A stretch of DNA of 64,000 bases from a virus (Duplodnaviria; Heunggongvirae; Uroviricota; Caudoviricetes): IMG/VR virus record IMGVR_UViG_3300029736_000004. One strand, 5' to 3'. Each line of letters begins with the position of its first letter. Position 1 is the stretch's first letter. Positions 8,041-63,546 of this stretch are shown piece by piece. Made by a program: the position numbers and the translations under genes. A model generated the notes under the pieces. That model saw nothing but the letters and a program-made list of their open reading frames with translations. It was not told where the DNA came from and searched no databases.

Positions 8041-8082
8041 AATGTATACCGACTCTGTTTTGTTCCGAGCGGTAAAATAATA

Positions 8083-8113
8083 TGTTAGAAAATTAAAATC
8101 AACATTCTAACAC
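8083..8113. promoter_or_regulatory. operator-like inverted motif (site A)
   Basis: TGTTAGAAAATT-9 bp-ATTCTAACAC in the intergenic region upstream of the 7045..8040 gene. Confidence 0.5.
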
Positions 8114-9360: not shown

Positions 9361-9632
9361 TTTGTTTTCTCCTGTCTGAACATCACTATCATCAGGTCGC
9401 CTTTTGTCGCTATCCTGGCTGTTGTACCTGGTTCAATGCGGCTAAGCTCAAATGCGTCATAGAACGCTTCTAATGCCTTCTGGCGTAGTTCCTGTTTGCG
9501 CCGTTTTTTCCACTGTTTCAGGAAAATGGAACCCAGCCATCGCCATGTACGGGACATGATGTAAAGCCAACCGAGAAGTGCCAGACCGGTATTTAGGAGC
9601 GTATCGATCTTTATTGTCGTGTCGATATTCAC
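9357..9632 (-). CDS. small membrane protein (91 aa)
   Basis: Hydrophobic segment LLNTGLALLGWLYIM; start overlaps upstream stop. Confidence 0.45.
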   Translation of the reverse strand: MNIDTTIKIDTLLNTGLALLGWLYIMSRTWRWLGSIFLKQWKKRRKQELRQKALEAFYDAFELSRIEPGTTARIATKGDLMIVMFRQEKTK

Positions 9633-10339
9633 TGGCTGCCTCCTTTGCGAAGCTGTTCAGCAATACTTACGCATATCTCTGCGCCTCTAATCAGCCCCGG
9701 AACGTTCTTGTTTGGCCCAACTTCACCATCGACAAAATCAATCATCGCGTTACGAGCCATATCCACGCCCTGCGCACGTACTTCAGCCAGGAAAGCATCG
9801 GTGGCTGGGGTGTCAACACGGATACTGTCGCGCAAGATGAAAAATGCATTGAGCATTCCAGTCTCTGGCACTTCATCCTGATGCTTCTCATACGCATCAA
9901 GAGCCTTCATCATCTCAGCTCCGAATGGTTGAGGGTGCACAGACTTCAGCTCCGCATTCTCCGCCGCCAGCACCGCGCGTTCGCTCTCCAGTTCTGTAAT
10001 GCGCCGTCTTGCAGCATCCAGTTCAATCGACAATTTTTCCAACTGCTCTTTATGCTTCTTGTATTCCTGATATGCGTGCCAAGACTGACCTTTGCGCACA
10101 CTATCCGTGATATCAGTAATCTGTTCTGGTGTTAGCGTGGTCAGTGGCTGTGCTGGGAAAATCAGCACTTTCCCGGCATCCCAATCAAACCCCACCTGAA
10201 TTGACTGAACCTCAACTGATGGTGTTGAACCGATGCGACCAGGCGAATGAACAACGATCGTTACATCCATATCGCGACGATGGCTGTGGTTGTTGGACAA
10301 AATACGATTCACCAACTCCGAGAATTTGGAAAATTTCAT
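9629..10339 (-). CDS. Ea22-like protein (coiled-coil, C-terminal [10 protein letters not shown] tail)
   Basis: Start taken at MKFSKF (ATGA overlap with upstream stop); shared C-terminal module with 11143..11817. Confidence 0.5.
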
Positions 10340-10692
10340 GCTGATTCCCTTTGCTCTTCCTGGATAATGTTGTTGCAATCTTTCACGCACTCGTTGCAGA
10401 TGAAAACGTTGTCCCCGGCAATTAACTTTTTAACGGTGTGCTGGGATTTGTTGCAGAAGCTGCAATAAAGCGTTGGACTGGCTGATACGGATGGTGCGCC
10501 AGATGTCAGCCGCGCGATGTCGTTCTTGCGACGCAATATCACACGGCTGCACTCGACCAGCATCTCCGGGGATATATCCTCCTCCGTGGCGAGCGCCTCC
10601 AGACGTTCGAGCAAGCGAAATACTTTTTCCTGGGTGATTGCAGAATGCGATGTGGTCATCTCACTCTCCTTTGAGGCGAATGCCTGTTGCAA
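10336..10692 (-). CDS. protein with ClpX-type C4 zinc-finger domain
   Basis: C-terminal [38 protein letters not shown] closely resembles the ClpX N-terminal zinc-binding domain. Confidence 0.55.
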
Positions 10693-11146
10693 TGCTGTTT
10701 ATGATGCTGTCAGTGCATGGGGTAGAAAGCTGGGCATCTCCAGCAATTTTCATGACCTCAACATCTGCATATCGAATACCGAGGTGTATCAGACCGGCTA
10801 TGCCTGACTTAAGCCGAGCATTTTCCATAAATAGAACCTTTGCCCGCTGTTTTTCTGCTTCAAGCTCAACGCGCAGCTTCCCTACCGTTAGCGCAATATC
10901 CTCGTTCTCCTGGTCGCGGCGTTTGATGTATTGCTGGTTTCTTTCCCGTTCATCCAGTAGTGCCAGCACGGTTTCTGGTCCGGCCAGAAATTTGAAGGCG
11001 TTGAGCGCATCAATATCCACACCGTAATCTTTAAGTTCCTGTTCACTTAACAAATCATCATCAGCTGGCAACATTAACAGGCGTTCCATTGCTGGAATTG
11101 CACGTTCCGCCGCCTCACGCAGTGCCTGGTAATTAATTTCGCTCAC
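10661..11146 (-). CDS. Ead/Ea22-like family protein
   Basis: N-terminus [16 protein letters not shown]; conserved junction. Confidence 0.6.
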
Positions 11147-11817
11147 TGGTTGCCTCCTTTGCGAAGCTGGGCAGCGAACCTATCAGCTGCATCCGCGCAA
11201 GCAGAAGCAACGGAATCAAAAAATGGATCATCTCCTGTATCGCGCATCGTCAAAGCGAATGCCTCCACCCCTTGTGCCTGTATTTCTACAAGGGATGCCT
11301 TAGATGTAGTGCTTTTCGCCTCGCCTAATTCGTTATGAGCGATGTTCGCTATACATGCGATGTCTATATCTGGATGATTAATTGGGCAATGGCTAAGAAT
11401 TGCCTCAAGTGCTGCTTTTTTGCTTTGGCATTCCGCCACCAGCGCCCCGCAATTGCTTTCCAGCTCTGCAATACACTTTTTAGCGGCCTCCAGCTCAACA
11501 CGCAGATTCTCAAGCGTTAGAGCCTTCTCCACGTTCTCGTCCAGCAGTTCAATCACATCAGGATCGCTACCATCAACTACTGATATGCGCGAATTTTTGT
11601 AATGCTCGTCAGCATAAGTTCGTCCAGTTTTGAAGCATCCGTCATCCTCCATGCCGGAACAGGCATAAACAACATGTGATCCAGATATGCGCTGCATTGA
11701 CATTTCCTCGCCACAAACAGGGCATTTAGGCGCTGGTTTCGGTGAATAACGTTCACGTAACGGATAGTAAAGCTCGATCTCCGCCAGTTGCTCTGGCGTT
11801 AAACCTTCAGACTTCAT
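11143..11817 (-). CDS. Ea22-like protein with N-terminal Cys cluster
   Basis: CPVCGEE...ACSG...C N-terminal motif, coiled-coil, C-terminal [10 protein letters not shown] tail. Confidence 0.5.
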   Translation of the reverse strand: MKSEGLTPEQLAEIELYYPLRERYSPKPAPKCPVCGEEMSMQRISGSHVVYACSGMEDDGCFKTGRTYADEHYKNSRISVVDGSDPDVIELLDENVEKALTLENLRVELEAAKKCIAELESNCGALVAECQSKKAALEAILSHCPINHPDIDIACIANIAHNELGEAKSTTSKASLVEIQAQGVEAFALTMRDTGDDPFFDSVASACADAADRFAAQLRKGGNQ

Positions 11818-12927: not shown

Positions 12928-12959
12928 GTGTTAGAAAATCAATTTTGATTTTCTAACAC
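12928..12959. promoter_or_regulatory. operator-like near-perfect palindrome (site B) in a divergent promoter region
   Basis: GTGTTAGAAAATCAA-TT-TTGATTTTCTAACAC between the minus-strand operon and the ref-like gene. Confidence 0.55.
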
Positions 12960-12961
12960 GT

Positions 12962-13579
12962 TTGATCAACCATAGCGGCGATGTAGACAAACCGGGTATT
13001 TCTATGAAGCAAAGCTATTGGGAGAAACAGACACAAAAAGCCCTGCAAAAACTGGCTGATCCGAAATGGCGGGAGGAACAAAGGGCAAAGCGTCTTCAGC
13101 AAGCTCAACGCCTGCAGCAGCGTGCGCGAGAAAAAGCCGCATCGCCTGAATATCGGCAAAAGAAAATTGAAAAAGCGAAGCAATATGAACAGCGAAGAAA
13201 AGAGAAGGCCGCTTCTGCTCCTGTCAAAAAAACTCGCGCGTCACGCGGCCTGAAAGGCAGAACACTCACAGCAGATGAGCGCCGGATACAAACTGCCATC
13301 GGTGCTCTCCCCTGCATTGCCTGCCATATGCACGGACAGCATAGCCCTGTGGTATCCCTGCACCACATCTTCGGAAGAACAGCAGAGAACGCGCATAAAT
13401 ACGTCCTCCCTTTGTGTAAATGGCACCATCAACACGCAGCGCCAGCAGAGATCCGCGAGCAATACCCCTGGTTGGTTCCTGTTCATGCTGATGGAAAAAT
13501 AGGCGGCAAAGCAGATTTCAGGCGGCACAATGCTGATGAAATGACGTTGTATCAGATGGTGACTGAATTAATAAATTAA
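12962..13579 (+). CDS. ref: Ref-like HNH endonuclease (recombination enhancement function family)
   Basis: Basic Lys/Arg-rich N-terminal half plus C-terminal His/Cys HNH-like core (CIACHMHG, SLHHIFGR, LPLCKWHH); TTG or internal ATG start. Confidence 0.5.
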   Translation: MINHSGDVDKPGISMKQSYWEKQTQKALQKLADPKWREEQRAKRLQQAQRLQQRAREKAASPEYRQKKIEKAKQYEQRRKEKAASAPVKKTRASRGLKGRTLTADERRIQTAIGALPCIACHMHGQHSPVVSLHHIFGRTAENAHKYVLPLCKWHHQHAAPAEIREQYPWLVPVHADGKIGGKADFRRHNADEMTLYQMVTELIN

Positions 13580-13590
13580 TTTTCTAACAT
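13578..13590. promoter_or_regulatory. operator-like half-site (site C)
   Basis: ATTTTCTAACA overlapping the ref stop, upstream of the immI-like region. Confidence 0.35.
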
Positions 13591-24543: not shown

Positions 24544-24587
24544 AAAACTGTGTTAGATAATTGAGTTTTATTTTCTAACACAGTTTT
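24544..24587. promoter_or_regulatory. operator-like palindrome (site D)
   Basis: 13-bp perfect inverted arms AAAACTGTGTTAG / CTAACACAGTTTT separated by 18 bp, directly upstream of rdgC. Confidence 0.55.
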
Positions 24588-32625: not shown

Positions 32626-32642
32626 TTGTTCTAATGTTTTAT

Positions 32643-32704
32643 GTTAGAAAATTAAGATTAAAACATACTAACACAAGATTGTTAACGAAAATTATTTTTC
32701 TAAT
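32643..32704. promoter_or_regulatory. operator-like motifs (site E) in a divergent promoter region
   Basis: TGTTAGAAAATT-11 bp-ATACTAACAC plus TTTTCTAATG at 32695. Confidence 0.5.
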
Positions 32705-62232: not shown

Positions 62233-62248
62233 GCTAAAAGATAGCTTA

Positions 62249-62262
62249 ATTTTCTAACACAG
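62249..62262. promoter_or_regulatory. operator-like half-site (site F)
   Basis: ATTTTCTAACACAG, followed by a short palindrome ACAGTGT-N8-ACACTGT. Confidence 0.4.
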
Positions 62263-63390: not shown

Positions 63391-63448
63391 TGTTGCGATT
63401 GACTGTACAATAACCGTGCGGCGGGAATTTCATCGCTCGAAAATGTAT

Positions 63449-63546
63449 GTTAGAAAATTAAATTGATGTTTCTAATCAAGAATGTATGATTTATATCGTC
63501 ACTAAAAAACAGCATCTGATAAAAATTCTGTTGATCTTTCTAATGT
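63449..63546. promoter_or_regulatory. operator-like motifs (site G) upstream of the second immI-like module
   Basis: TGTTAGAAAATT-9 bp-TTTCTAATCA and TTTCTAATG at 63538. Confidence 0.5.

Follow-up and report, generated by a model that had tools for sequence, protein, structure and literature searches.

Why a tailed phage should carry part of the host unfoldase ClpX is the question raised by a short minus-strand gene of a P1/D6-type phage-plasmid, found in a 64,000-nt viral sequence (IMG/VR record IMGVR_UViG_3300029736_000004; hereafter, the window). An initial annotation, made from the letters alone, had likened the end of the gene product to ClpX's zinc-binding domain (ZBD), which is N-terminal there, and proposed that a free copy of this domain could act as a decoy, competing with host ClpX for adaptors or substrates. 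The domain is textbook, and the family has already been named by RefSeq on domain grounds; a full-text survey of the literature on ClpX zinc fingers and phage factors returned no study of the family or of any phage ZBD protein. Here we delimit the gene and its domains, compare the docking surface with that of ClpX, and weigh the decoy proposal against other readings of the same evidence.

The gene and its product

The gene had originally been drawn as an open reading frame spanning 10336-10692 on the minus strand. The open frame exists, and its beginning has to be moved: the TTG start at 10692 is replaced by an ATG at 10659, which gives a protein of 107 aa (Table 1). The TTG extension would add 11 codons and runs into the upstream gene. 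We consider ATG 10659 the likely start because it is served by a good ribosome-binding site and because RefSeq calls the same 107-aa product from the same coding sequence in 99%-identical plasmids (WP_021551796.1, "ClpX C4-type zinc finger protein"). The stop codon of the upstream gene, TGA at 10663-10661, lies 1 nt before this ATG, which suggests translational coupling, and the stop codon of the ZBD gene shares the tetranucleotide ATGA with the ATG of the next gene.

Table 1. Features of the ZBD gene and its surroundings, in coordinates of the window.
Feature	Position	Strand	Basis or remark
Coding sequence of the 107-aa protein	10336..10659	-	ATG 10659-10657, stop TGA 10338-10336
Shine-Dalgarno sequence AAAGGAG	10666..10672	-	6 nt before ATG; read from sequence
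N-terminal orphan domain, residues 8-54	10498..10638	-	AF2 model and alignments
Ser/Ala/Pro-rich flexible linker, residues 55-62	10474..10497	-	pLDDT <50 at residues 56-59
ClpX-type ZBD (treble-clef C4), residues 63-106	10342..10473	-	Pfam, phmmer, AF2 model, Foldseek
Predicted Zn ligand codon C66	10462-10464	-	
Predicted Zn ligand codon C69	10453-10455	-	
Predicted Zn ligand codon C88	10396-10398	-	
Predicted Zn ligand codon C91	10387-10389	-	
Downstream gene	9629-10339	-	236-aa chimera
First ~110 aa of the downstream gene	10339-10002	-	co-inherited with the ZBD gene in other elements
Ead/Ea22-like flanking gene	10661-11089	-	
Ead/Ea22-like flanking gene	11143-11817	-	
Weak terminator-like match	12476-12457	-	
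Perfect 15+15 palindrome, GTGTTAGAAAATCAA-AA-TTGATTTTCTAACAC	12928..12959	.	divergent intergenic region, operon head; putative operator
Further half-site positions	8082-8096, 13576-13590, 24550-24581, 32641-32655, 62246-62260, 63447-63461		

The product matches PHROG 6797 over its full length (E 1.1e-56; residues 1-106 against profile positions 1-106 of 107), which is listed as a phage family of unknown function. Members have also circulated under the legacy name "carboxylate--amine ligase", which is attached to P88 gp19 (L003 3932-4264), D6 orf93 (L002 5725-6045) and many GenBank records and has since been changed by RefSeq. Pfam and NCBIfam returned no ATP-grasp or GCS2-type ligase domain in the protein, and since the ligase domain is absent, we regard this name as an annotation error.

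A ClpX-type zinc-binding domain at the C-terminus

By sequence and predicted structure, the 107-aa protein carries a bona fide ClpX-type C4 zinc-binding domain. The resemblance of the C-terminal ~40 residues to ClpX, noted at the outset, holds far above chance in Pfam, in phmmer searches of PDB and in the superposition of an AF2 model. The Pfam family PF06689 (zf-C4_ClpX) matches residues 65-101 with 64.2 bits (cut-off 27; E 9.8e-18). Among PDB sequences, phmmer returned ClpX only, with the E. coli ZBD entries best (1ovx and 2ds5, E 1e-15 and 4e-15); across solved ClpX structures, E. coli chains scored 56-61 bits, Listeria 43 and Neisseria 37. The YCSFC...ICNEC pattern cited in the initial annotation is present and supplies C66, C69, C88 and C91, spaced as C15/C18/C37/C40 of ClpX, and the cysteine ligands of this CxxC-18-CxxC array are 100% conserved, at fixed spacing, in 36 distinct ZBDs of the family. 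The alignment with the ClpX N-domain that had been recommended as a check gave 28 identities over the 40 positions of E. coli ClpX residues 12-51 (70%); for the family as a whole, identity over the same residues has a median of 72% and a maximum of 80%, reached by P88-type alleles. The AF2 model, computed from 21 family sequences (mean pLDDT 79, pTM 0.38), folds the C-terminal part into a beta-hairpin followed by a helix, the treble-clef fold as predicted, and this part superposes on 2ds6, 2ds5 and 2ds8 at 0.6 A over 38 residues, with 71% identity and TM scores (target) of 0.82-0.92.

A complete ClpX unfoldase can be dismissed as the identity of the protein, which has 107 aa against about 420 aa and lacks the AAA+ module (Walker A/B), the pore loops and the IGF loop. 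The NCBIfam ClpX equivalogs scored 47.5 and 43.6 bits, against cut-offs of 359 and 371, and aligned at model positions 5-50 only. DNA-level comparison of the ZBD gene with clpX found no similarity, so any capture from a host gene would be old.

Conservation of the docking surface

In ClpX, Phe16 and Ile46 (numbered without Met1) form a hydrophobic side pocket that overlaps the lambda O site and also serves trigger factor, SspB and RssB (PMC7804408). Further published mapping, numbered with Met1, has implicated L12, L13 and H23, all required for binding of MqsA and the last for SspB too, together with K27, I29 and A30, which show the strongest NMR shifts (PMC8808172). The pocket residues correspond to F68 and I98 of the phage protein and are both identical, as are the counterparts of L13, H23, K27, I29 and A30 (L64, H74, K78, I80 and A81, respectively); L12, which aligns with T63, is the sole mapped binding residue that is not. 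Among the 36 distinct family ZBDs, the four cysteine ligands, F17 (phage F68), I29 (I80), G31 (G82) and I36 are invariant, and the position of L13 (L64) is always L, I or V. K27 (K78) is kept in 83% and A30 (A81) in 89%; I47, counted with Met1 (I98), is I or V in 31/36; and H23 (H74) is H or Y in 33/36 and T in the remaining 3/36. L12 (T63) is lost, being kept in 6%. By these alignments, the peptide-binding hydrophobic pocket and the beta-strand of the ClpX ZBD are largely kept, and they have been kept while the N-terminal domains of the family diverged to about 45% identity. Against the decoy proposal, some alleles alter the docking strand (KLIAG to LIITG) or residues close to it, H23 being changed to Y or T and L12 hardly ever retained.

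An obligatory orphan domain and its implications

The phage protein is not the "stand-alone copy" of the ClpX domain that had been envisaged: residues 1-62 constitute a separate conserved domain and a linker. The N-terminal domain is modelled by AF2 as a two-helix hairpin (helices 10-25 and 31-52; pLDDT 75-88), with an acidic first helix and a basic second one. It contains 15 invariant positions, mostly charged, including E11, K12, E18, R19, E21, E26, E27, E36, R43, R44 and D47, and shows dN/dS of about 0.2-0.4, and the linker that follows varies in sequence and length across the family, as seen from alignment indels. The domain is an orphan. An exhaustive phmmer search with the N-terminal 62 residues of the query produced 9 matches in 1.84 billion representatives, 2 of which are repetitive or low-complexity sequences and the others full-length, truncated or frameshifted family members; relatives sought by profile in PDB and in Pfam (E up to 10) amounted to family members and noise only, and the N-domain alignment run against one-genome-per-species contigs gave no confirmed relative. 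In the 9 phmmer matches, as in 76 viral loci described below, the N-domain occurs only fused to the ZBD. An obligatory orphan domain of this kind implies a function beyond simple competition, and it counts against the decoy proposal in its pure form, in which a strictly conserved N-domain has no role.

We considered whether helix 2 contains an XB-like ClpX-binding motif, given the likeness of RVILRRK to the LRVVK tail of SspB. The candidate was rejected: the published ZBD-binding consensus, LKxh, is unmatched, and the stretch is predicted to be helical.

The two-domain layout invites a different reading, namely that the phage ZBD heterodimerises with the ClpX ZBD or docks on the ring, making the protein a hijacking adaptor or a poison subunit whose hairpin, tethered to ClpX, would either obstruct the pore or hand over a specific protein, of the host or of a competitor, to be degraded. 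The succession of domain, linker and docking module is adaptor-like, which makes this model attractive: a second domain that is always present, attached through a flexible linker, is the classic adaptor arrangement (compare the body and tail of SspB), the ClpX ZBD is a constitutive dimer to which the phage domain is up to 80% identical, and SPO1 Gp53 offers the precedent of a phage adaptor-like protein for ClpCP (PMC6873191). Set against this, PDB and Pfam searches recognised no binding fold in the N-domain, and the helix positions near the dimer or pocket region are variable (L, V, A or D at 43; E, N or R at 46), and on balance we judge hijacking of ClpX to be unlikely. Its most specific form, in which the ZBD would join host ClpX as a xenogeneic adaptor and the hairpin would recruit a protein of the host or of a rival element for destruction or remodelling, strikes us as more unlikely still; were it true, a phage would be giving an AAA+ protease a new programme by supplying it with a duplicate of the protease's own docking domain.

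Distribution and evolution of the family

Relatives at 60-93% identity come, without exception, from mobile elements of Escherichia and Salmonella. Phage-plasmids and P2-like prophages of clinical E. coli commonly carry the family: the gene is present in 195/5426 complete E. coli genomes, at 106 plasmid and 100 chromosomal places. Its carriers include D6-like plasmids, plasmids of ~106-110 kb, phage records of 108-109 kb such as CMS-2020a and PhiR41_1, P88-like P2-type prophages, in which the gene directly follows gpA-ParM-ParR, and at least one lambdoid prophage (L013), in which it lies downstream of O/P-like replication genes. The three main carrier types have plasmid-partition functions or a plasmid lifestyle, with at least the one lambdoid prophage (L013) as an exception; in the P88-like P2 prophages (L004-L012), which are integrated, all that separates the ZBD gene from replication gene A is a plasmid segregation pair of the ParM/ParR type.

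This replication- and partition-proximal position, after gpA-ParM-ParR in the P88-like prophages or after O/P-like genes in the lambdoid one, bears on another reading, in which the ZBD would serve a small regulator as a general-purpose module, stabilised by zinc, for dimerisation and peptide binding. The target would then have nothing to do with ClpX and would be a replication, partition or transcription factor of phage or host, bound by the charged N-terminal hairpin. The 15 invariant and mostly charged positions of that hairpin are in keeping with such a role, and zf-C4_ClpX is found in non-ClpX architectures, among them proteins unrelated to ClpX function such as cyanobacterial sigma factors. 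The reading leaves unexplained the retention of the ClpX-pocket residues during divergence of the N-domains, and Foldseek, PDB and Pfam searches detected no DNA-binding or known regulator fold; we regard it as possible, if doubtful. Should the ZBD indeed serve an unrelated purpose, the gene would be an ordinary uncharacterised accessory gene.

The N-domain alignment retrieved 76 IMG/VR viral loci encoding 45 distinct proteins, and every complete member has both domains. Pairwise dN/dS values of about 0.2-0.5 in each domain indicate that both are under purifying selection. The two halves of the gene have not always travelled together: between the L004 and L009 alleles, dS is 0.03 in the N-domain and 0.41 in the ZBD, and this inequality points to recombination at the linker, reassorting N-domains and ZBDs. 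A contrast in dS between the halves is also seen in some pairs of the window gene, D6, L004 and L009 alleles.

BLAST boundaries show that the gene moves as a mosaic or recombination module of its own. When the neighbouring ORFs of the 76 viral loci were clustered, no partner gene was common to both subfamilies, one of which has Ea22-like genes on both sides and the other ParM/ParR upstream and assorted small ORFs downstream. An independent module with no shared partner gene fits a protein acting on host factors, and from this sequence context the gene seems to provide a self-contained accessory function with some target in the host. The PADLOC defence models gave no match to the protein at E up to 0.1, and for the flanking genes they gave coiled-coil noise only.

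The mosaic accessory region in which the gene resides is rich in pseudogenes and recombinant Ea22-like genes, and a few copies of the gene itself are frameshifted or truncated (P0043, P0045, P0046, L035 and L050), as would be expected if it were what remains of a captured clpX gene, in decay or without function. We consider this highly improbable. The two domains are intact in every complete member of the 76 viral loci, and the same holds for the 195 E. coli genomes; each domain has dN/dS below 1; the gene has a good ribosome-binding site and signs of coupled translation; and the lack of DNA-level similarity to clpX argues in the same direction. In two of the damaged IMG/VR copies, L035 and L050, a frameshift or deletion after ...FICDEC fuses the ZBD gene to the downstream gene, yielding products of 282-301 aa that lose the C-terminal helix of the ZBD; these fusions are probably inactive alleles or assembly errors.

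Genomic setting and a putative repressor operator

A 3.5-kb region around the gene is 99% identical to E. coli plasmids of 92-94 kb and, in patches, 93% identical to phage D6, a P1-like plasmid prophage whose orf93 is an 83%-identical allele of the ZBD gene. Within the window, the gene belongs to a long, tightly packed minus-strand operon that also comprises DUF4406, a DNA-binding protein, Ead/Ea22-like genes, DUF4752 and a metallophosphoesterase.

The operon is headed by a perfect palindrome (Table 1), which occupies a divergent intergenic region shared with a ref-like gene and overlaps a promoter-like sequence, TTGATT-17-GATACT. A scan of the interval between this palindrome and the ZBD gene found no promoter-like sites on the minus strand and two weak terminator-like matches, only one of them on the minus strand. 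The half-site, (A/G)TGTTAGAAAAT(T/C)AA, has 11 copies in the window, against 2.4 expected, and 0 shuffles reached 11; the copies are mostly intergenic, include two inverted pairs and are conserved at orthologous positions of D6. The P1 C1 operator consensus is absent from the window. On this evidence, the palindrome is a probable repressor operator, and the 15-mer set probably represents the immunity-repressor operators of D6-type phage-plasmids. We infer that the operon would be repressor-controlled and expressed on induction or infection. In other phage types, the gene is found in early or replication-proximal accessory regions.

The genes flanking the ZBD gene are themselves mosaic. Two Ead/Ea22-like genes lie beside it, and the downstream gene encodes a 236-aa chimera with no Pfam family, of which the first ~110 aa are co-inherited with the ZBD gene in two other elements, the lambdoid prophage (L013) and a plasmid of ~110 kb (L014); the rest of the chimera, a coiled coil and an Ea22-like tail making up the C-terminal half, differs between elements. 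In some elements (L028, L041; P0008, P0017), the N-terminus of the ZBD protein itself, MTTSHSA, is replaced by the Ea22-type MKSEGLTPAQLAERNAELPR, a swap indicating that recombination junctions in the 5' ends of Ea22-like genes shuffle accessory cassettes.

A proposed mimic of the ClpX docking domain

Our preferred reading, to which we assign a probability of about 0.4, is that the protein is an early-expressed mimic of the ClpX ZBD that would titrate adaptors and N-domain degrons. It is a plausible proposal whose basis is domain homology and surface conservation. Following induction or infection, the protein would accumulate and dimerise through its ZBD, like the ClpX domain. The ZBD would bind XB-type tails and N-domain degrons, including SspB, RssB-sigma-S, lambda-O-like initiators and MuA-type substrates, and also antitoxins in an unfolded state, for example MqsA. 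In this way the protein would selectively shut down the part of ClpX/ClpXP activity that depends on adaptors and on the N-domain, with no effect on pore-recognised substrates (ssrA tags), and the N-terminal hairpin might contribute avidity through further oligomerisation, or a second binding specificity. The benefit would probably lie in phage or host proteins spared from ClpXP, for instance, initiators of replication, or antitoxins without which the cell dies, by analogy with RexB of lambda, PinA of T4 and gp4.5 of T7. A tblastn search of the window for Phd/Doc addiction genes as a possible ClpXP-linked client gave nothing significant; the evidence from this search is weak, and 28 kb of the replicon lie outside the window.

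The selectivity assumed in the decoy model matches what is known of ClpX, whose N-domain is needed for recognition of MuA, FtsZ and adaptors and is dispensable for ssrA (PMC5415555); it is also needed for lambda O (PMC7804408). The mechanism has a biochemical precedent, in that free ZBD slows sigma-S turnover: supplied in trans at 5-20 uM, the isolated ClpX ZBD inhibits RssB-mediated breakdown of sigma-S by 0.6 uM ClpXP in vitro (PMC7226468). Free ZBD is a weak competitor, needed in micromolar excess, so a simple decoy would require high expression or extra avidity.

If the protein does compete for the ClpX docking site, or plug into it, it would be the first phage factor found to control ClpXP by mimicking its adaptor-binding domain. 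It would also be a natural and selective inhibitor of the proteolysis that depends on adaptors or the N-domain, acting on sigma-S, cargo of SspB, lambda O and MuA-type substrates, together with some antitoxins. Such an activity would bear on prophage induction, phage-plasmid maintenance, abortive infection by toxin-antitoxin systems and the stress responses of lysogens.

Comparison with known systems

The phage domain and the E. coli ClpX ZBD have in common the fold, the four cysteines and their spacing, 70% identity, the F16/I46 pocket, the KLIAG strand, L13 and H23. They differ at L12 and in the residues that precede the domain on its N-terminal side; moreover, the phage ZBD is the C-terminal part of a protein of only 107 aa and has an unrelated helical domain in front.

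Phages are known to benefit from inhibiting AAA+ proteases of the host. The small proteins to which such inhibition has been attributed, by proposal or by demonstration, include RexB of lambda, which protects lambda O, Phd and MazE from ClpX/ClpA, and PinA of T4 and gp4.5 of T7, which block Lon. The present protein has no kinship in sequence or fold with these three, none of which copies a protease domain, and RexB moreover resides in the membrane and is made by the prophage. SPO1 Gp53 is a phage early protein directed at the interface between a Clp unfoldase N-domain and its adaptor, in B. subtilis ClpCP (PMC6873191); Gp53, however, binds ClpC and does not imitate it, and host, fold and Clp partner are all different. 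The anti-adaptors IraP, IraM and IraD are likewise small proteins that block delivery of sigma-S at the step of RssB-ZBD docking, and the ZBD and IraD have been proposed to share a site on RssB (PMC7226468). They are, by contrast, host stress-response genes whose products bind RssB only, and the phage protein is unrelated to them by sequence or fold, with no Pfam match at E up to 1.

A further candidate, the lambda Ea8.5-type protein of the exo-xis region, which combines a helical part with a zinc finger, was set aside because PDB sequence searches and Foldseek returned the ClpX ZBD only; the likeness to Ea8.5-type proteins is architectural only.

Free-standing ClpX-type ZBDs also occur in an ORF of Caulobacter phage Cr30 (L015 2486-2725), a large phage of 156 kb, and in a 65-aa "Clp protease" of Pseudomonas phage PP9W2 (BFVD A0A9E7CCK4). 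Unlike the protein described here, these mini-ZBDs have no N-terminal hairpin, and they belong to lytic or unrelated phages; their presence in unrelated phages suggests that phages have acquired the domain repeatedly.
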